A stretch of 64,000 nt of DNA. Origin: an uncultured bacterium. Its GTDB lineage: Bacteria > Omnitrophota > Omnitrophia > Omnitrophales > Abzuiibacteriaceae. Position 1 is the stretch's first letter; each line of letters begins with the position of its first letter. A program made the translations under genes and the position numbers. The DNA lies in assembly GCA_964387845.1 (NCBI GenBank), contig CAYLXA010000013.1, positions 25,521 to 89,520 on the forward strand, given 5' to 3'. This document shows, in pieces, positions 8,335-40,883 of the stretch. The notes under the pieces are model-generated. The model saw nothing but the letters and a program-made list of their open reading frames with translations, made no database searches and was not told the origin of the DNA.

Positions 8335-9816
8335 TTATACCTCCTGGAATTCAAATTTCAGGAGCTGTGATAAAATTTTCCCGGTCCAACGGTAAATATT
8401 GTTCTGGGCGACGATTTCGCGCATTTTACGCATGCGTTTCTCTTTTTCCTCCTGCGGCATCGCGAACGCTTGCTCAATCGCATCTGCAAATTGCTCCGAA
8501 TCGTAAGGATTGATCAAAATCGCATCCGACAACTCTCTGGATGCGCCTGTGAATTTTGACAGGATCAGAGCACCGCCCAAATCCTCGCGCGCCGCAACAA
8601 ATTCCTTTGAAACCAAATTCATTCCGTCGTGAAGCGAGCTCACAACACAAACATCCGCCATCCGGTAAAGGGCTAGAATGTCGTCATAACTCACATAAGT
8701 ACGCTTTAATACGATAGGTGCCCACGAATCAGTAGAATGTTTCCAGTTAATTTCCTCTACAAGCCCGTTAATTTCATCATTCAGATGTTTATAGCGAGGA
8801 ATGTGAATTCTTGAGATTTGGCCTATTTGAAGGAAAATAAATTTTTCTTTGTATTGAGGATATTTTTCAAGAAACCGGTCTATCGCGCGCAGTCTTTCGG
8901 GAATGCCCTTAGTGTAATCAATCCGGTCTACGCCGACGATTAATTTCAAATCACCGATTGAATACTCATCACGCAAGTTCTGAATCCGTGACCGGGTTTT
9001 GTCCGACGATGCTTGTTCCGAAATGGCTTCGAAATCAACCGAAATCGGAAATGCGCGTATCAGTGCTTCATGATTTTGAAACGAAACCGAGTCACGTTCA
9101 CGGTCAATCCGGCTTTCAACCTCGCGGTCAACCGTTGCGAAAAAATTATCCATGTGGTAACGAATCTGAAATCCGACAAGGTCGCACGATAAGAATCCTT
9201 CCAAAATTTCCTGTTTTTGCGGGCAAATCCTAAATACTTCCGGATTCGGCCACGGAATATGCCAGAAAATCGATGTGATGATATTCAAACGCCCGGAATC
9301 ACGTAGATATTTGGCAACGAGTGCGAGCTGAAAATCCTGGATCCAGACAAAAGCTTTTTCATTTCCGACTTCTGCTAAAACCGCATCCGCGAACATTTTG
9401 TTTACCTTCTGATAGGATTTCCAGTCGGCGTCGTTAAATAACGGCCTCGTATAAGCCACATGGCACAATGGCCAAAGCCCCTCATTGGAAAAACCGTAAT
9501 AGTATTTGTCACGGTCTTCTTTGCTGAGAAACATGCGTTTTAACTGGTAAGAAGGATTGTGCGGCGGGAGCATGACTTTTGAATTTGCATCGACCGCTTT
9601 TTTGTCGTGCTCACTTGAGGAGGCAGCAATCCAAGTTCCTTGGACGGCTTCCATGACGGGGCTAAGGGCGGTTACGAGGCCGCCCGGTTCGCGCTGACAG
9701 ATTAATTTACCGCTTTGCAGAACATGCTTGAACGGCTGCCGATTGGAGACTACGATGAGTTTATAGTCGGACAAACGTTCTTGTATGGTTTTTTGAAGCG
9801 TTTCTTTGGTCCACAT
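8335..9816 (-). CDS. otsA: Alpha,alpha-trehalose-phosphate synthase (GT20)
   Basis: The 493-aa protein has IVVSNRQP and GGLVTAL and a GT20-like layout. It abuts otsB. Confidence 0.9.
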   Translation of the reverse strand: MWTKETLQKTIQERLSDYKLIVVSNRQPFKHVLQSGKLICQREPGGLVTALSPVMEAVQGTWIAASSSEHDKKAVDANSKVMLPPHNPSYQLKRMFLSKEDRDKYYYGFSNEGLWPLCHVAYTRPLFNDADWKSYQKVNKMFADAVLAEVGNEKAFVWIQDFQLALVAKYLRDSGRLNIITSIFWHIPWPNPEVFRICPQKQEILEGFLSCDLVGFQIRYHMDNFFATVDREVESRIDRERDSVSFQNHEALIRAFPISVDFEAISEQASSDKTRSRIQNLRDEYSIGDLKLIVGVDRIDYTKGIPERLRAIDRFLEKYPQYKEKFIFLQIGQISRIHIPRYKHLNDEINGLVEEINWKHSTDSWAPIVLKRTYVSYDDILALYRMADVCVVSSLHDGMNLVSKEFVAAREDLGGALILSKFTGASRELSDAILINPYDSEQFADAIEQAFAMPQEEKEKRMRKMREIVAQNNIYRWTGKILSQLLKFEFQEV

Positions 9817-9825
9817 GATTTTGCC

Positions 9826-9872
9826 TTAAAATAGAAACCGCCACCTGAATTTTTCATTCAGATGGCGGCCCG
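9826..9872 (-). terminator. Hairpin plus U-tract between nuoN and otsA. It may be an intrinsic terminator or attenuator, read on the minus strand.
   Basis: Arms of 13-15 bp (aaccgccacctgaat / attcagatggcgg, one mismatch) with a 5-nt loop. The minus-strand RNA continues UUUCUAUUUU. The hairpin ends only ~20 nt before the otsA start. Confidence 0.4.
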
Positions 9873-10020
9873 GCCATCACTTCAAATTTAACCTCCGGAA
9901 TATTTCCGGACCCTTTGGCGTAGAAAAGATTTTAAACCGTTTTTAAAATAAGGGCAAGGTTTTTATCCGAGTTTAGGAGAAATTTTCTACGAATTTTATT
10001 TTCGACGGGTGAAAAATATT

Positions 10021-32892: not shown

Positions 32893-33522
32893 ATGGCGTT
32901 GTCCGATCTTTATAGCAATTTTCATTTGTTTTTCAGATGGCTTCACGTATTTGTCGGTATTATTTGGATCGGCCATCTGTATTTTTTCAATTTTGTGAAC
33001 GTCCCGCTTCAAGCCTCACTAGATGATGCCGGCAAGAAAGTCGTCAACCCAAAACTGATGCCGCGCGCACTTTGGTGGTTCCGCTGGGGCGCCATGCTCA
33101 CGTTTATTTCCGGGTTGATTCTTTATACGATGATTTACATGTATACGCCGGGAGCCGGATTTGGCCCTTCATCCGCGTTTCGTGATCTTTTCGGTAATAT
33201 TACGGGTAGATCAATTTGGATTTTAATCGGAATGTTATTTGGCACGATTATGTGGTTCAACGTGTGGTTTATTATTTGGCCTGCTCAGAAAGCTCTTTTA
33301 TCCGGAAAAGTTCCGGCCGATCAAGCCGCCGGCGTTCGCCGCAGAGCCTATTTGGCGTCACGTACAAATACCTATCTGTCGGGCCCCATGCTTTATGGTA
33401 TGTTGGCTCCGGGGCATTACGGCGCGTTTAGCTGGGTGACGTTTTTGGTGTTTGGTTTGGTGGCGGTGGCCTTGATTTTCCACGCCATTCAGAAATCCCC
33501 CAAAGTCGGTACGTCAGTTTGA
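32893..33522 (+). CDS. Polytopic membrane protein, possibly of the HemJ/UPF0093-like family
   Basis: The 209-aa protein has 4-5 TM helices. Its first helix has the F-W-L-H-x-F-V-G-I-I-W-I-G-H-L-Y-F pattern, reminiscent of HemJ-type proteins. An RBS GGAGGAGG sits 6 nt upstream. Family G repeats flank the gene on both sides. Confidence 0.55.
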   Translation: MALSDLYSNFHLFFRWLHVFVGIIWIGHLYFFNFVNVPLQASLDDAGKKVVNPKLMPRALWWFRWGAMLTFISGLILYTMIYMYTPGAGFGPSSAFRDLFGNITGRSIWILIGMLFGTIMWFNVWFIIWPAQKALLSGKVPADQAAGVRRRAYLASRTNTYLSGPMLYGMLAPGHYGAFSWVTFLVFGLVAVALIFHAIQKSPKVGTSV

Positions 33523-33527
33523 TCTAA

Positions 33528-33625
33528 TCGTTATTGCGAGGCGCCTTAATCAGCGTCGCGGCAATCCCTGTTCTGAGATTGCTTCGGCGTTAATCAACGC
33601 GCCTCGCAATGACAGTTCAATTTAT
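33528..33625. repeat. ~95-bp palindromic intergenic repeat (family G), copy 2
   Basis: ttattgcgaggcgcc ... agattgcttcggcgttaatcaacgcgcctcgcaatgac. It has the same architecture as copy 1 and sits between convergent genes. Confidence 0.7.
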
Positions 33626-33634
33626 ACTTTAAAA

Positions 33635-33892
33635 TTATTCTAATTCCTGCAAAAACGAATTCCGGCTTTTCAAATCGACAAACACAACCTGGTCTGGATA
33701 ATTTAACCCCGCTTCACTGACAAATACTGTGGTGCCGTTGATCTGAAACGCCATTACCTCGCAACCCTCGATGGGAAGTTTGTTCCCGCCCCCTATGATT
33801 TTATCGACAATTTCCTGGCTTACGGCTTTGGCTTTTTGGCCGCGCGCGTCGAGGTAATTCACCAGGATTGTCTTTAGGTCTTGGATTGTCAT
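33635..33892 (-). CDS. Small hypothetical protein (85 aa)
   Basis: An ORF with a LacI-type palindromic operator 29 nt upstream. I recognise no family. It does not end in GG, so it is not a ThiS/CysO-type carrier. Confidence 0.45.
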   Translation of the reverse strand: MTIQDLKTILVNYLDARGQKAKAVSQEIVDKIIGGGNKLPIEGCEVMAFQINGTTVFVSEAGLNYPDQVVFVDLKSRNSFLQELE

Positions 33893-33920
33893 TGTTATTT
33901 CCTCTTTTCTCCGGTTTTAT

Positions 33921-33934
33921 TGTAACCGGTTACA
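33921..33934. promoter_or_regulatory. Perfect 14-bp palindrome TGTAACCGGTTACA. It looks like a LacI-family operator, upstream of the 85-aa gene.
   Basis: It matches the LacI/GalR operator pattern TGnAAnCGnTTnCA and is identical to the site at 34983..34996. Confidence 0.55.
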
Positions 33935-33952
33935 TAAAAATTAAAAAAAATA

Positions 33953-34966
33953 TCAATCCGATTTTCTTATAACCAATTCCGGATCAAATTTGGTTTGAAC
34001 AGGAGCTTTTACCTTATTTGTCACTAAGTTAATTAGAGTTTCGCATGCAGTGCGTCCCATGGTTTCGAGTGGTTGGCGCACGGAAGTAAGCGGCGGCGTG
34101 AACGTTTCGTTTTTAGGCGAGTCATCAAAGCCGGCGATGGCTACATCATCCGGGATGCGAAGCCTCGCTTCTTTGATAGCACGGACAGCTCCCCGTGCCA
34201 AATCATCATTGGCGCAGAAAATCGCGCGCGGCAGTTTCTTATTTTTAATCCAATTTGCAGTTACGACAAAACCATCTTGTTCGTCAAACCGGGCCGCTTG
34301 CGGTAAAAATTCATCACGAAGCTTAAATTTTAGATTTCTTGAAGCGGATTTAAATGCTTTGAATCGGGCTCTTGCGTCCAGGGAAATATACTCCGGCCCT
34401 CTGAGCATCCCGATGGTTCGGTAACCCCGCCTGATGAATCGTGAACAGATGGCTTCGACTCCGCTTTGATTACTGCAGTAAACGATACTGGATTTAACGC
34501 TAGGCTCATAGTCATTAATGAGCACGACGGGAAGTTTTGAATGAGTTTCGATTTCCCGGATTAATTTTGGGAAGAGGCGCCAGGTCAAAAAAATGATGCC
34601 ATCAACAGCGTGTTTCTGCAGAAGGTCTTTGAGGTTGCATTGTTCAATTTCAGCATCGCGGATCATGATCCATTTCAAATCATATGTGCAAGCGTACATT
34701 CCTGTGATGATTCCCGAAATAAGGCCTTCATAGTAATTGCTTTTCACAAGATCGGTTGAAAATGGCGTCACCATGCCGACCGTGTTGGTGGTTTGCTTGC
34801 TCAGCGCGCGCGCAGATTGACTGGGAATGTAATTGAGTTTACGAATTACTTTTTCAATTTGTTTTTGCGTTTCGGAGTGCACAAGGTGCTTTTTGTCGGG
34901 ATCCATGTAGCGGGATATGCTTGCTACCGAAACTCCCGCTTGCTTTGCCACATCTCTGATTGTTGC
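33953..34966 (-). CDS. LacI-family transcriptional regulator
   Basis: The N-terminal HTH reads MATIRDVAKQAGVSVASISRYM, followed by a periplasmic-binding-protein-like sugar-binding core. The start is set at this Met (track residue 22). Confidence 0.8.
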   Translation of the reverse strand, partial: ATIRDVAKQAGVSVASISRYMDPDKKHLVHSETQKQIEKVIRKLNYIPSQSARALSKQTTNTVGMVTPFSTDLVKSNYYEGLISGIITGMYACTYDLKWIMIRDAEIEQCNLKDLLQKHAVDGIIFLTWRLFPKLIREIETHSKLPVVLINDYEPSVKSSIVYCSNQSGVEAICSRFIRRGYRTIGMLRGPEYISLDARARFKAFKSASRNLKFKLRDEFLPQAARFDEQDGFVVTANWIKNKKLPRAIFCANDDLARGAVRAIKEARLRIPDDVAIAGFDDSPKNETFTPPLTSVRQPLETMGRTACETLINLVTNKVKAPVQTKFDPELVIRKSD

Positions 34967-34982
34967 CATAAAGCTCCTTTTT

Positions 34983-34996
34983 TGTAACCGGTTACA
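34983..34996. promoter_or_regulatory. Second identical palindrome TGTAACCGGTTACA, 17 nt upstream of the LacI-family gene start. Likely an autoregulatory operator.
   Basis: An exact copy of the 33921 site, in the divergent region between the regulator and the sulfite reductase gene. Confidence 0.55.
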
Positions 34997-35255
34997 TTGG
35001 AAAGGTAGCACAGCTTTGCCCTTTGTCAAGGTGCCGATTTATGAGTGCGCCGCGTTTTTGAAAAACAGGTTGGCCGGTCGATATATTCGGCCGGATTGTC
35101 GGATATGCGGGAGATGTATTTTTTAAGTTTATCGAGATAAGCCTATAACTGACTATATTAGTCGGAATTTGGTTTGACAGTTCCGCCGAAGTGGACTATG
35201 ATAGGCGTCACTTTCAGCAAGATTCCAAGCCGAGAGTCCCCAAATAAGGTGAAAA

Positions 35256-36983
35256 ATGCTCGATAAATTGGTATTGCCTTCAGAAATTAAGAAGTTTGAG
35301 GAGATGGTGATTAAGCTCGAAAAGGGCGAAATCTCATCCGATGAATTCAAAAAATTCCGCCTCAATAATGGTGTCTACGGAATCCGCAATTCTGACGACA
35401 CCCACATGATCCGCATTAAAATCCCGTTCGGCGCTTTGAGTTCCGAACAGCTGGAAGCCATTGCAGATGCGACCGAGAAATACGCGCCGCTGAAGATGGG
35501 GCACGTCACGACCCGTCAATGTATTCAGGTTCACAAGATCAAGCGCGAAGATGTTGCTAAATATTTGGATATCATCGGAAAAGCCGGTGTCACGAGCCGT
35601 GAAGCGTGCGGCAACACAGTTCGAAATGTGACCGCATGTCCCTACGCAGGTGTTTCAAAATCCGAAGCTTTTGACGTGAGGCCCTACGCTGAAGTCATAG
35701 TCGAATATTTTCTGCGCAATCCGCTCAATCAAAATTTACCGCGGAAATTCAAAATCGCACTCGAAGGATGCCCGGAAGATCACGCACGCACGCCGATTCA
35801 TGATTTGGGGCTTGTGGCTGCGATTCGCAAGGTGAACGGAAAAGAAGAGCGCGGCTTTAAAATTTATGCGGGCGGCGGCTTGGGAAGCCACCCGGTCAGC
35901 GCCGTGCTGCTCGAACCTTTCACGCCGATGGAACTCGTTTTGCCGACGTGCGATGCGACGGTCCGCATTTTTGAGCGCCACGGAGACCGCAAGAACCGTT
36001 CACGTGCTCGGATTAAGTTTTTGCTTGAAGATTGGGGCGAAGAAAAATTCCGCAAAGCGATTTTAGATGAGCGGGCTGCTGTTCTTTTCACACGATCGGG
36101 CCTAGCGTATCCTAAATTTGATATTCAGGACGAAAAACCGCCGGTTGTAAAAGAAAAGGCTGAAAAAGTGACATCGCCTGCGTTCGAAAAGTGGCGAAAG
36201 ACCAACGCGGTTGAACAAAAACAAAAAGGTTTTTACTCGGTCGCAATCCGCTGCCCGCTGGGTGATGTGACGGTTTCCCAGATGCGCGATATCGCAAAAA
36301 TCGCGCGCAAATTCTGCGGAGGCAGAATTGTAACTACTATCACACAAAATTTCATATTCGCGTGGGTGCACGAAAATTATCTGGGGTCTGTTTATAAAGA
36401 GCTCGAAAAAATTAATCTCGCATTTGATGGCGCCGAGCGCTTCATTGATGTGACGCGCTGCCCGGGAGCTGACACTTGTAATCTCGCGATTACAAAATCG
36501 CGCGGGCTTGCGCAGGCAGTCGATCAGCTTTTCAATAACGGATTGAGCCCGCTTTCAGATCTCGAGGGAATCGACATTAAAATTTCAGGCTGCCCGAATT
36601 CTTGCGGCCAGCACCATATTGCTTCGATGGGTTTTTACGGAACTGCCCGGAATGTAAACGGAAAACTCGTGCCGCACTATGAATTAATGATCGGCGGCGG
36701 AACGGTAGAGGGAAAAGCCACGTTTGGCGTTGCCACGATCCGGATCCCTGCGCGCAAGACGCCGGATGCCGTCAAACACTTGGCCGGCATTTATCAAAAG
36801 GAAAAAAAGTCGGACGAGACATTTAATCAATTCGCTGCCCGCATCGGAAACGAGCGGATCAAGAAAGAGCTCGAACCGTTTACGCATTTGGAAGCGTATG
36901 ATACCGATCCCGAAAACTATCAGGATTGGACCGACGAAGCACCGTTTAAACTTCAGGTCGGCAAGGGCGAATGTGCAGCTTAA
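35256..36983 (+). CDS. sir: Ferredoxin-dependent sulfite (or nitrite) reductase hemoprotein (siroheme-[4Fe-4S])
   Basis: The 575-aa protein has two NiR/SiR repeats. Cluster-ligand motifs are CPGADTCNLAITKSRG and GCPNSCGQHH. Confidence 0.8.
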   Translation: MLDKLVLPSEIKKFEEMVIKLEKGEISSDEFKKFRLNNGVYGIRNSDDTHMIRIKIPFGALSSEQLEAIADATEKYAPLKMGHVTTRQCIQVHKIKREDVAKYLDIIGKAGVTSREACGNTVRNVTACPYAGVSKSEAFDVRPYAEVIVEYFLRNPLNQNLPRKFKIALEGCPEDHARTPIHDLGLVAAIRKVNGKEERGFKIYAGGGLGSHPVSAVLLEPFTPMELVLPTCDATVRIFERHGDRKNRSRARIKFLLEDWGEEKFRKAILDERAAVLFTRSGLAYPKFDIQDEKPPVVKEKAEKVTSPAFEKWRKTNAVEQKQKGFYSVAIRCPLGDVTVSQMRDIAKIARKFCGGRIVTTITQNFIFAWVHENYLGSVYKELEKINLAFDGAERFIDVTRCPGADTCNLAITKSRGLAQAVDQLFNNGLSPLSDLEGIDIKISGCPNSCGQHHIASMGFYGTARNVNGKLVPHYELMIGGGTVEGKATFGVATIRIPARKTPDAVKHLAGIYQKEKKSDETFNQFAARIGNERIKKELEPFTHLEAYDTDPENYQDWTDEAPFKLQVGKGECAA

Positions 36984-36989
36984 TTTAGT

Positions 36990-37028
36990 GATAAGTTGTA
37001 AGTGGTAAGTGCTAAGTTAACTGCCAAG
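36990..37028. repeat. Family T (TAAGT-heptad) repeat between sir and mec
   Basis: tagtgataagttgtaagtggtaagtgctaagttaa. Confidence 0.6.
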
Positions 37029-37548
37029 CAAGTTCCAAAAAATCTTTCTTCGTAGAATCCCAGCCGAATAATTTCGCACCGCGGGCTTTACCCCTGACTC
37101 GAACGGAGTCAGGGACTGCGTCGGCCGCGAAGCGATCGGCTTCGCTGTCCGCGCTGTCTTTTGTAACGTCGACTACTAAATAATTCACATCAGGCATCAG
37201 AGGGCTGCCATCAAACGTCGCTTGTTTTTTATCTTCGTCCGAAAAATAAGAACCGACATCAACGTGAGAATGATAAATAATCCGGATGACCTCGTCTTTT
37301 GTACGGGCGACTTTTTCGATATTCAAAAGGTCTTTGGGATCTAAAAAGTAGGCAGTTTTGCTTGTTCGCGGAAACTTTTGAGGGTCGCTTGCGTGCATTT
37401 CATCCTGCAAATTCCGGCAGGGAAACGAGTTTTCAAGACTTGCGGGAATCCCTTTTTTGCCGGTAATGATACCGCAACATTCGGAAGGATAGGCTGAAAT
37501 AGCATGGCGATAAACCGCGTCTATGATTCGTTTTTTGATTGTAACCAT
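37012..37548 (-). CDS. mec: JAMM/MPN+ metalloprotease (Mec-like CysO-cysteine peptidase)
   Basis: The JAMM motif IIYHSHVDVGSYFSDED (HxHx7Sx2D) is present, along with a conserved Glu and a Cys-Cys near the N-terminus. Genomic context is next to moeZ and cysM. Confidence 0.75.
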   Translation of the reverse strand: MVTIKKRIIDAVYRHAISAYPSECCGIITGKKGIPASLENSFPCRNLQDEMHASDPQKFPRTSKTAYFLDPKDLLNIEKVARTKDEVIRIIYHSHVDVGSYFSDEDKKQATFDGSPLMPDVNYLVVDVTKDSADSEADRFAADAVPDSVRVRGKARGAKLFGWDSTKKDFLELAWQLT

Positions 37549-37585
37549 AGTTGTAAGTGGTAAGCGCTAAGTGTTAAGTAAAAGG
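37549..37585. repeat. Family T repeat upstream-flanking the four-helix-bundle gene
   Basis: accatagttgtaagtggtaagcgctaagtgttaagt. It is in inverted orientation relative to the copy at 37975..38012. Confidence 0.6.
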
Positions 37586-37935
37586 GATTTTTGAAAACCG
37601 CAAAGCATTCTTCCGACCTCATCACAATTTTCTGAAATTAGTTCAAACTTTTCATGACTAATATAAGCCAAATCAAAGCCTAATAACAGATGATATTTAG
37701 TTTCTTCTAGAGAGCTATCAGCTAAGTTTAGAAAATGCAGAAATTCTTTCCTGCTTTTTCTCTTTTGTCCTTCTACGATGTTTGTAGAAATGGAAGCGGC
37801 AGCTCTGCGTAATTGACTAGATAATCCGAATTTTTCGTCTGACGGGAAGCTTTTAGTAATTTTATAAACTTCCAAAACCAATCGATGAGCTTTTTGCCAG
37901 ACTTTTAAATCACGAAATGTACTAATTTTATTCAT
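37567..37935 (-). CDS. Four-helix-bundle protein (the family often found in 23S rRNA intervening sequences)
   Basis: The 122-aa protein reads MNKISTFRDLKVWQKAHRLVLEVYKITKSFPSDEKFGLSSQLRRAAASISTNIVEG, the characteristic signature of that family. A strong RBS AGGAGGG is present. Inverted family T repeats flank the gene. Confidence 0.8.
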   Translation of the reverse strand: MNKISTFRDLKVWQKAHRLVLEVYKITKSFPSDEKFGLSSQLRRAAASISTNIVEGQKRKSRKEFLHFLNLADSSLEETKYHLLLGFDLAYISHEKFELISENCDEVGRMLCGFQKSLLLNT

Positions 37936-37974
37936 AAACCCTCCTTGAATTAATATGATTATTTAATTCGTGGA

Positions 37975-38012
37975 GGGAAAAACTTATCACTTACAACTTA
38001 CCACTTAAAACT
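37975..38012. repeat. Family T repeat in inverted orientation, downstream flank of the four-helix-bundle gene
   Basis: acttatcacttacaacttaccacttaaaacttag, which is the reverse complement of the TAAGT-heptad unit. Confidence 0.6.
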
Positions 38013-39184
38013 TAGTACCTTGCCATGCTCGGATCAACGCGCTCAGCCCACACATCGATTCCGCCGGTCAGGTTTTTCAACTTCTTAAACCCGCGCGATT
38101 GAAGGATTTGCAGCGCTTTCATGCTGCGCCCTCCGTGATGGCATTGCAGCACAATCTCTTTTGAGGGATCAAGCTCTCCGGTTCGATTTTGAATTTCACC
38201 CAGCGGAATGAGTTTTGAACCTTCAATGTGGCAAATGTCGTATTCAAACGGCTCGCGAACATCAATCAAAACCACTTCTTTCCTGTCGAGTCTCTTTTTG
38301 AGTTCTTCAACCGTGATTTCAATCGAATCGCCTTTTCCTTTTGCTGCATCTTCACCGACAGATTCCTGGCCGATCCGCAGGCCGCAAAATTGTTCGTAAT
38401 CGATTAATTTTTTAATCGTCGGATTTTTTCCGCAGATGGGGCACTCCGGATCTTTTCTTAGTTTCAATTCGTGAAAGCGCATCTTGAGCGCGTTAAATGT
38501 GAGAAGCCTTCCGATGAGCGGAGTGCCTTGGCCCGTGATGAGTTTTACGGTTTCGGTGGCTTGAATCACACCGACAACGCCGGGAAGAATTCCCAAAACT
38601 CCGCCTTCTGCGCAGCTCGGGACCATTCCGGGCGGCGGCGGTTCGGGATAAAGGCAGCGATAACAGGGCCCGCGTGTTGAATCAAAAACGGAAGCCTGGC
38701 CTTCAAATCGGAAAATACTGCCGTAAGCGTTTGGTTTGCCGAGCAAAACGCAGGCATCGTTTACGAGATAACGCGTCGGAAAATTATCGGTTCCGTCTGC
38801 GACGATGTCGTATTGTTTGATGATTTCCATCGCGTTCGAGGAATCCAGTTTGGTTTCGTGCTCGATCACATTGACGTTCGGATTAATCTCGCGAAGCCGA
38901 GCTGCAGCCGTACCGACTTTGGATTTTCCGATATCTTTGGTGCCGAACAAAACCTGGCGCTGCAAATTGGTGTGATCGACGACGTCAAAATCAATCAGCC
39001 CGAGCGTTCCGATGCCGGCGGCTGCGAGATATAAGGAAAGCGGGGAGCCAAGGCCGCCCGTGCCGACACACAGGACTTTTGCGGCTTTTAGCTTTTTTTG
39101 CCCTTCGACGCCGATTTCAGGCAATATCAGATGGCGTGAGTAGCGCTTCAGCTCTTCAGTTGATAGATTTACTTCTTTTCCCAT
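38012..39184 (-). CDS. moeZ: Sulfur-carrier-protein adenylyltransferase/sulfurtransferase (MoeZ/MoeB-type E1 with a C-terminal rhodanese domain)
   Basis: It has a ThiF/MoeB Rossmann fold (VLCVGTGGLGSP), a CxxC pair and a rhodanese domain with the active-site motif CHHGGRS. Confidence 0.85.
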   Translation of the reverse strand: MGKEVNLSTEELKRYSRHLILPEIGVEGQKKLKAAKVLCVGTGGLGSPLSLYLAAAGIGTLGLIDFDVVDHTNLQRQVLFGTKDIGKSKVGTAAARLREINPNVNVIEHETKLDSSNAMEIIKQYDIVADGTDNFPTRYLVNDACVLLGKPNAYGSIFRFEGQASVFDSTRGPCYRCLYPEPPPPGMVPSCAEGGVLGILPGVVGVIQATETVKLITGQGTPLIGRLLTFNALKMRFHELKLRKDPECPICGKNPTIKKLIDYEQFCGLRIGQESVGEDAAKGKGDSIEITVEELKKRLDRKEVVLIDVREPFEYDICHIEGSKLIPLGEIQNRTGELDPSKEIVLQCHHGGRSMKALQILQSRGFKKLKNLTGGIDVWAERVDPSMARY

Positions 39185-40193: not shown

Positions 40194-40883
40194 ATGAAGA
40201 AATCAGCGGGATTTTTTTATCTGTTATTTGTGTATATTTTTGCGGCTCTTGTGATTTTGCCGGCTGCCTTCGCGGAAGAATCCGTGAAAGACGATGCGAA
40301 AAAAAAGGAAGAGCCGCCGAAAAAAGTAATCGGTTTCATTCCGATTCAAAAAACATTTCCATATCCGGTTTATTTGTCAACCGAGCCGAATGCTTTTGAT
40401 GTTATCAAGCGTTTATTTCAGGACAAACGGCTTAATTTACAAAAGCAGGTTGACTACGATCCGCGTTATGTGCCGGCGCTGCTCGAGGAATTGATTTCCG
40501 AGAAGCTTTTCGACAGCGGTTATTTGGTGTATACGCCGGAGCAAATCGAGCCGCATTTTGAACAGCTGACGCTTTTTAAAGAAGAGTTTCCGATTGAACA
40601 ATTGAAAGAATATTTTGATGCCGGCGCATTTTTGAACGTGACACTCACGGAATGGAACGCCGATGATTTTGATAAGAAAGGCACTCTTAGAGTTGGTTTC
40701 CAAGCGGTTTTGGTGGACGTACAAACGAAGAACGTGGTATGGTCTAGCCAGGCTGCCGGCATGAAAATCAAAACGCCGTCGGATGATTTTCTTTATTCTA
40801 AATATCAGCGCGATGTATTAAATGATTTAGCCAAACGGATTCTCAAAGGTTTTCCGAAAAACGACTGGATTGTCAATTCATGA
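40194..40883 (+). CDS. Hypothetical secreted protein with a signal peptide
   Basis: The 229-aa protein has an N-terminal hydrophobic signal (FFYLLFVYIFAALVILPAAFA) and then a charged region. I recognise no family. Confidence 0.5.
   Translation: MKKSAGFFYLLFVYIFAALVILPAAFAEESVKDDAKKKEEPPKKVIGFIPIQKTFPYPVYLSTEPNAFDVIKRLFQDKRLNLQKQVDYDPRYVPALLEELISEKLFDSGYLVYTPEQIEPHFEQLTLFKEEFPIEQLKEYFDAGAFLNVTLTEWNADDFDKKGTLRVGFQAVLVDVQTKNVVWSSQAAGMKIKTPSDDFLYSKYQRDVLNDLAKRILKGFPKNDWIVNS

Follow-up and report, generated by a model that had tools for sequence, protein, structure and literature searches.

A LacI-family regulator gene bracketed by two identical palindromes, its probable operators, beside an orphan gene in Omnitrophota

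The locus and its two palindromes

The window, by which we mean the whole 64-kb stretch of Omnitrophota DNA analysed, carries a lacI gene and, directly downstream, a gene for an 85-aa orphan protein, both on the minus strand (Table 1). As originally predicted, lacI is bracketed by two identical perfect 14-bp palindromes: TGTAACCGGTTACA occurs exactly twice in the window, and both copies join TGTAAC to GTTACA through a central CG, giving an even palindrome. We refer to them as putative operators 1 and 2. The second was rightly placed between the lacI stop and the 85-aa gene, but both of the distances first given need correcting, the gap to the lacI start codon being 13 nt and not 17, and that to the start of the 85-aa gene 28 nt and not 29.

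Table 1. Features of the lacI locus, with window coordinates; operator, promoter and ribosome-binding-site assignments are predictions
Feature	Position	Strand	Details
Long imperfect hairpin	33530..33613	.	37-nt arms, 78% complementary
85-aa orphan gene	33635..33892	-	directly downstream of lacI
Gap, operator 2 to 85-aa ATG	33893-33920		28 nt
Small-gene ribosome-binding site GAGGA	33900..33904	-	7 nt before ATG; read from sequence
Putative operator 2	33921..33934	.	exact TGTAACCGGTTACA; 18 nt past lacI stop, 28 nt before 85-aa ATG
AT-rich stretch with T-run	33935..33952	-	between lacI stop and operator 2
lacI	33953..34969	-	338 aa; Pfam and NCBIfam matches
Gap, operator 1 to lacI ATG	34970-34982		contains AAGGAG
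lacI ribosome-binding site AAGGAG	34974..34979	-	read from sequence
Putative operator 1	34983..34996	.	exact TGTAACCGGTTACA; 5 nt 3' of lacI -10, 13 nt 5' of lacI ATG
Predicted lacI promoter	35002..35029	-	-35 TTGACA 35029-35024, -10 TACCTT 35007-35002
Predicted reductase promoter	35174-35202		TTGACA-17-TATGAT; ~180 bp from operator 1
NirA/Sir-type sulfite/nitrite reductase gene	35256-36983		divergent from lacI

A palindrome is by itself unremarkable here, because six perfect 14-bp palindromes were seen in the window against 4.2 expected. TGTAACCGGTTACA is the only one that recurs, and a repeated palindrome of any kind appeared in just one of 300 shuffles. An exact copy has an expectation of 2.7e-4 per 64 kb, and none of 100 dinucleotide shuffles contained any. 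No further site with two or fewer mismatches was found in the 64 kb. The lone three-mismatch site, at 40325, falls within an ORF (40194-40883) and is no more than chance would give, as shuffled sequences averaged 1.6 sites with up to three mismatches. An Rfam search of 33400-35400 gave no match, and the exact 14-mer was not found in the searchable literature.

DNA was fetched around orthologues of the small protein and of LacI, as loci with up to 10 kb of flank each, giving about 14 independent Omnitrophota lineages (Table 2). All 33 exact copies of TGTAACCGGTTACA in the 0.49 Mb made up of the window and the relatives' loci occupy the positions of operator 1 or 2, and loci added after that count held no site with two or fewer mismatches outside these positions. 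Within this sequence the palindrome is not the scattered repeat against which the original prediction had cautioned. Identical copies flanking one gene do superficially resemble cassette boundaries, but it is hardly credible that they bound a mobile cassette, represent a REP-like repeat or serve another factor as its site. The two copies share no more than about 20 nt of sequence, there are no other copies in the 64 kb or in the relatives' flanks, and the same two positions are occupied in lineages whose LacI is only 42-60% identical. The site moreover bears the signature of the LacI family and is confined to loci whose orthologue carries the helix-turn-helix (HTH); no operator site lies near any of the loci of HTH-less paralogues, whose gene contexts show no consistent picture. 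We rejected the mobile-element reading on the shortness of the repeat and its fixed positions across lineages.

The regulator and the predicted control of its unit

The regulator matches HTH_LacI (PF00356) over residues 3-50 (E 9.2e-14, 51.4 bits against a Pfam cutoff of 27), followed by an effector domain resembling type-I periplasmic binding proteins (PF13377 Peripla_BP_3, E 1.7e-34; PF00532, E 6.9e-13). Its best NCBIfam matches, both sub-threshold, are PurR and RbsR, and its closest solved structures are RbsR (9ny7) and PurR (2pua), aligned end to end at E ~1e-36. The hinge reads ...PSQSARALS..., with L56 aligning with the ARSL hinge of PurR and RbsR. We take L56 to be equivalent to L54 of PurR, the hinge leucine that pries open the central CpG. 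HTH, hinge leucine, effector domain and an even palindrome with central CG, all the marks of LacI/GalR membership that can be tested in sequence, are present, and on these the regulator is a bona fide member of the family. Across 34 orthologues the recognition-helix residues V13, S14, A16, S19 and R20 are invariant, as are P49, A53 and L56, so that the invariance of the DNA-reading residues parallels that of the site.

The ORF list had started lacI at TTG 35029. We prefer ATG 34969; the longer TTG-initiated ORF is unsupported because the orthologues are 335-340 aa long and AAGGAG precedes the ATG. At its other end the protein stops at residue 338, where PurR and RbsR end, and has no C-terminal leucine-heptad tetramerisation helix. 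LacI chains can be aligned only as far as query residue 318 (LacI residue 310), leaving the tail unmatched.

The predicted lacI promoter has a 16-nt spacer ending in TGc, an extended -10 (TGc-TACCTT, 35010-35002). A pattern of TTGACA-N16/17-(TGn)TAnnnT-N0-5-operator matches 10 of the 11 lineages tested, and L053 and L054 have the layout seen in the window. Operator 1 spans from 0-5 nt past the predicted -10 to just before the ribosome-binding site. Lying 5 nt after the -10 in the window, it would cover the transcription start, the classical position for occlusion. The autoregulation suggested for this site is well supported: it is promoter-proximal and keeps 12-14 of its 14 bases while its flanks diverge.

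The control region of the small gene is less sharply defined, and its sequence allows no unique assignment of -35 and -10 boxes. The T-run of the AT-rich stretch, aTTTTTT(g), lies 10-19 nt 5' of operator 2 and is kept in all ten lineages aligned. In L002 it is kept although 180 bp have been inserted between it and the lacI stop, suggesting that it belongs to the control region of the small gene, and the AT-rich stretch is probably part of that gene's own promoter. A search for intrinsic minus-strand terminators between lacI and the 85-aa gene found none, so transcription could equally well read through from the lacI promoter and meet operator 2 as a roadblock. In L051, where the gap is 14 nt, the two genes can form a simple bicistron. 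A purine-rich GGAG/GAGG element precedes the small gene in all lineages. The hairpin beyond it (RNA fold -49.3 kcal/mol, z = -7.4) separates the convergent 85-aa gene and a Urate_ox_N-like membrane gene, and probably ends the transcription unit.

Taken together, the sequence data make it very probable that the repressor encoded between the two palindromes uses them as its cognate operators. One dimer would bind each 14-bp site, with the HTH recognition helices reading the TGTAAC half-sites and the hinge-helix Leu56 inserting at the central CpG, as in PurR and LacI. At operator 1, placed after a sigma70-type extended -10, the bound repressor would cover the transcription start and so exert negative autoregulation. 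At operator 2 it would block the small gene's AT-rich promoter, read-through from the lacI promoter, or both, holding the small gene off more tightly than lacI. A small-molecule inducer would then free both operators.

Two operators around one gene might instead be bridged by the repressor, with a DNA loop rather than occlusion silencing the unit. Two identical sites are kept 1059-1070 bp apart in most lineages (1238 bp in L002), and simple co-transcription would need just one site, at the lacI promoter. The lac (O1, O2, O3) and gal (OE, OI) systems likewise have more than one operator copy around one transcription unit. They differ in that the regulator here has no tetramerisation domain, its C-terminus aligning with those of the dimeric PurR and RbsR, and in that a separate gene with its own ribosome-binding site lies downstream of each operator. 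The operator spacing, about 1.06 kb, is determined by the length of the gene, and the spacings observed (1059, 1061, 1062, 1063, 1066, 1067, 1070 and 1238 bp) show no helical phasing. L051 and L054 lack operator 2, and the sites of L014 abut. We consider looping distinctly improbable, and the lack of the leucine-heptad helix led us to reject the tetrameric looping repressors of the E. coli LacI type as the class to which this protein belongs.

Conservation and neighbouring genes in Omnitrophota

Operator 1 keeps 12-14 of 14 bases in about 13 lineages, whose LacI proteins range from 42 to 100% identity, and all 14 in about 11 (Table 2). Operator 2 occurs together with the small gene in about 11 lineages, perfect in about eight and with a single change in three (L015, L030 and L052). 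The bases flanking the operators are not conserved among lineages. Between lineages the synonymous sites of the small gene differ by 49-71%, and set against this divergence the 28 unchanged operator bases are a strong footprint. The same comparison gives pN/pS values of 0.12-0.35, indicating that the 85-aa ORF is a real gene under selection.

Table 2. The regulator, the putative operators and the small gene in the window and related lineages; LacI identity is relative to the window protein, and operators are given as bases matching TGTAACCGGTTACA
Lineage	LacI identity	Operator 1	Operator 2	Small gene	Remarks
Window	100%	14/14	14/14	present	
L002	82%	14/14	14/14	present	180-bp insertion past lacI stop
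L008	77%	14/14	14/14	present	
L006	64%	14/14	14/14	present	
L055	59%	13/14	14/14	present	
L028	58%	14/14	14/14	present	
L053	57%	14/14	14/14	present	
L013	56%	14/14	14/14	present	
L046	56%	14/14	14/14	present	
L052		14/14	13/14	present	
L015	47%	14/14	13/14	present	
L030	42%	14/14	13/14	present	
L051	fragment		none	present, 14 nt after lacI	547-bp contig, too short for operator 1
L054	49%	14/14	none	none	
L014	50%	13/14 + 12/14	none	none	operator 1 is two abutting near-sites

In L051 the small gene is present without operator 2, so the second site is not indispensable. L014 and L054 have lacI and operator 1 but no small gene, which suggests other targets, or pure autoregulation, in these lineages. 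Further members of the regulon may lie elsewhere in the genome.

Five lineages (L013, L015, L028, L046 and L053) have, next after the small gene and reading the same way, a gene for a 440-630-aa PF10091 protein, split into three ORFs in L046 and shortened in L028. This protein resembles the cyclisation domain of cyclic beta-1,2-glucan synthase (8rf9, 8wy1; E ~1e-20, 3e-20) and is also related to the GH144 endo-beta-1,2-glucanase (5gzh). The hydrolase is absent from the 64-kb window by tblastn and from the fetched flanks of L002, L006, L008, L030, L052 and L055; the unit in the window thus has no PF10091 hydrolase to mark it as a beta-1,2-glucan utilisation locus. It seems likely, from this distribution, that the ancestral unit was lacI, small gene and hydrolase, and that the hydrolase was lost or moved in several lineages. 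In the window lineage, with the hydrolase not at the locus, a minimal two-gene unit of lacI and the orphan gene would remain.

With a beta-1,2-glucan-type glycoside hydrolase as its ancestral functional neighbour, the sugar-type reading of the regulator stands. The position of the hydrolase after the small gene in several relatives makes a sugar the most plausible inducer, and our guess would be that it is possibly a beta-1,2-gluco-oligosaccharide.

The gene divergent from lacI had suggested a different role, in which operator 1 also controls the sulfite/nitrite reductase and places the regulator in sulfur assimilation. In the window, L002 and L055 it is indeed the reductase that lies divergent to lacI, and there is a precedent in YcjW, a LacI-family regulator that controls sulfur metabolism (PMC6599011). 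The reductase, however, has a near-consensus promoter of its own, some 180 bp from operator 1, and the TTGACAGTTCC -35 region of this promoter is retained in L055, at a distance of about 100-150 bp from the operator. There is no second operator site near it. The reductase adjoins lacI only in this one clade, and L006, L008, L015, L053 and L054 have a different gene upstream with the operator unchanged; among these neighbours are DJ-1/PfpI (L006), a Pel9A-like gene (L008), SmpB (L015) and ornithine decarboxylase (L053). Because its promoter is separate and the upstream neighbour varies, control of the reductase is unsupported and we regard it as very improbable. What had been called an unusual sulfur setting is plain synteny within the clade, with no regulatory link.

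The orphan protein and characterised LacI-family systems

The 85-aa protein was originally described as uncharacterised, and it remains so after searches of Pfam, NCBIfam, PHROGs and PADLOC, none of which gave a match. Against PDB sequence profiles its best scores (E 0.17 to MIF, 0.9 to HU) are noise, and no relative by fold was found in the PDB searches run. It is acidic and soluble, with a predicted fold of two helices on a four-stranded sheet (alpha-alpha-beta4, pLDDT 83). A word-indexed search of 5.8 billion clusters found four relatives, and a profile search of 1.84 billion representatives about 18-20 clusters. Short repeats in giant proteins were also matched by the small-protein profile and were rejected as spurious, a test of the neighbouring 3628-aa beta-helix protein being negative. 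The small gene adjoins this LacI in about 12 lineages, with small-protein identity falling to 22-27%, and the family was found in no other context, nor beside any of the HTH-less paralogues. This orphan family, accompanying the repressor almost everywhere, is the only unusual element of the locus.

In other respects the locus is an ordinary local regulon of the LacI type, set in an unstudied phylum, and its one intriguing feature is the orphan partner. In the part of the LacI-family survey by Ravcheev et al. 2014 on which we draw (PMC4052901), 1173 of the 1303 motifs have the form of an even palindrome centred on CG, 72% of regulators are autoregulated and about 90% are local. The local regulons described there resemble this one in their autoregulation, in their even CG palindromes and in having two to seven genes beside the regulator (PMC4052901). 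They differ in their motifs, which are 16-22 nt long against a 14-nt conserved core with A/T-rich flanks here, and in their targets, a transporter or enzyme where the constant target here is a protein of unknown function. No Omnitrophota appear among the survey examples in that part of PMC4052901. According to the same part of the survey, most family members bind DNA without ligand and PurR needs a co-repressor (PMC4052901); the regulator described here probably binds without ligand.

PurR and RbsR of E. coli share with the window protein their domain order, dimeric architecture and lack of a tetramerisation tail. The identity is only about 30%, and the loop after the recognition helix is two residues longer in the window protein (DPDKKHLV).

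The nearest characterised operator is that of PtxS, the 2-ketogluconate-responsive LacI-family repressor of Pseudomonas, whose sites lie at -9 to +23 and which represses by occlusion (PMC5902321, PMC3402500). Its operator, TGAAACCGGTTTCA, was defined experimentally around +1 of the ptxS, kgu and gad promoters (PMC5902321). It is identical to TGTAACCGGTTACA at 12 of 14 bases, differing at positions 3 and 12, and both are 14-bp perfect even palindromes with a central CCGG. PtxS, like the regulator in the window, has copies of its site both at its own promoter and at the promoters of its targets. The targets differ, being kgu and gad for PtxS and here, in the phylum Omnitrophota, the orphan 85-aa protein, joined in some lineages by a beta-1,2-glucan hydrolase. 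We rejected a PtxS orthologue on the two changed bases, on the absence of kgu or gad genes from every locus examined, and on the window protein's best matches, which are PurR and RbsR rather than gluconate regulators.

The regulatory logic is textbook for the LacI family and adds little on mechanism. Omnitrophota is, to our knowledge, a candidate phylum without a cultured model organism or experimental genetics, and the regulator and its predicted sites would be among its first cleanly defined transcription-factor/operator pairs. The exact site, the sigma70-like extended -10 promoter and the target gene make the proposal directly testable in E. coli or in vitro.

The 85-aa protein might be more than a target. 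It could work as the repressor's dedicated partner, in the role of co-repressor or anti-repressor, within a self-contained two-protein feedback switch peculiar to Omnitrophota. The strict adjacency of the two genes across lineages fits with this, as do the confinement of the small family to this context, the persistence of the pair where the locus has no hydrolase and the 14-nt gap in L051. The acidity of the protein is a further point in its favour and suggests that it does not itself bind DNA. Small-protein co-effectors of LacI-family regulators do exist: HPr-Ser-P or Crh works with CcpA. An acidic protein of about 85 aa tied to a LacI-family regulator recalls that arrangement, as an analogy for the partnership and nothing further, since the orphan has no PTS-HPr domain, likeness to HPr or Crh, or fold match. 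An HPr/Crh-type co-effector identity was rejected, a PTS-HPr fold with a phosphorylatable Ser46 being absent. A regulator with the first gene of its target operon directly behind it is, besides, the commonest layout, and the repressors of L014 and L054 have no small protein. We consider such a partnership unlikely, and favour the orphan gene as a target held off at operator 2. Were the 85-aa protein a co-regulator, it would add a new accessory component to a repressor family that is already very well studied, and the switch would have outlasted its beta-1,2-glucan hydrolase cargo at the locus.

Operator layout and the genes around it in relatives

At the Clostridia locus L024 a LacI-family gene is bracketed by two related palindromes much as the window lacI is, so the layout with an operator before and after the regulator recurs in the LacI family; the identity of the L024 protein is only 27%. 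At L014, whose LacI is 50% identical to that of the window, both near-operators lie upstream of lacI. No small gene follows lacI in L014, and the next gene there encodes an acetyl-CoA hydrolase-GNAT fusion.

Locus L002 carries an insertion of ~180 bp (9765-9945), with the lacI stop on one side and the T-run and operator 2 on the other, which the source annotation gives as a 63-aa ORF and which was found in no other lineage. In L046 (6342-8400) the PF10091 hydrolase that follows the small gene is broken into three ORFs, and its L028 version (1504-2823) is missing ~190 internal residues. The splitting and the shortening could each reflect hydrolase decay or an assembly error.

Repressor relatives without an HTH

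Searches returned ~45 clusters of LacI paralogues of 275-300 aa each (loci L016-L023 and L031-L045; proteins P0040-P0085), almost all from Omnitrophota, that share 40-46% identity with the effector domain of the window LacI (residues ~57-337). Neither an HTH domain nor a signal peptide was found in any of these clusters. None of the paralogues is encoded within the 64-kb window, and no copy of the operator palindrome was found near their genes. One paralogue (L036) and the lacI orthologue (L029) lie ~30 kb apart on one 525-kb contig. These proteins could partner the repressor, as decoys or in heterodimers, or they could bind sugars and serve a different function.

The small protein and neighbouring features

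In giant proteins of 1700-4200 aa (P0132, P0137, P0140 and others) the profile of the small protein picks up 4-14 short repeats, which align to query positions ~21-62. No such match was seen in the window's own giant protein. The matches probably reflect a generic beta-hairpin repeat resemblance. That giant ORF has a syntenic counterpart of 3181 aa in L002, and in L008 and L009 a 904-aa Pel9A-like gene lies directly upstream of lacI.

The inverted repeat downstream of the small gene has a fold energy of -49 kcal/mol (z = -7.4). Despite the missing U-tract after the hairpin, it is probably a bidirectional terminator.

Features of the window and of related loci
Feature	Position	Strand	Content or setting
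Giant ORF, 3628 aa	20371-31257	minus	Repeated Pel9A-like/beta-helix, DUF4215 and cysteine-rich repeat regions
Imperfect inverted repeat, 37-nt arms	33530-33613		Between convergent 85-aa gene and Urate_ox_N-like membrane gene
Sulfur-carrier-type cluster	35256-39184		NirA/Sir reductase, Prok-JAB protease, ThiF-rhodanese (MoeZ-like) activating enzyme
23S-rRNA-IVS/bAvd-like four-helix protein gene	37567-37935		Inserted between JAB and ThiF genes
Two near-operators, head to tail, abutting	L014 5951-5978		Upstream of lacI; order TGTAAGCGGTTACA, TGTAAGCGCTTACA
Two related palindromes	L024 5961-5974, 7033-7046		Bracketing Clostridia LacI-family gene; TGTAAACGATTACA, TGTAAACGTTTACA

In the related locus L055 the sulfur-carrier set is completed by a ThiS-like carrier and a PALP enzyme.
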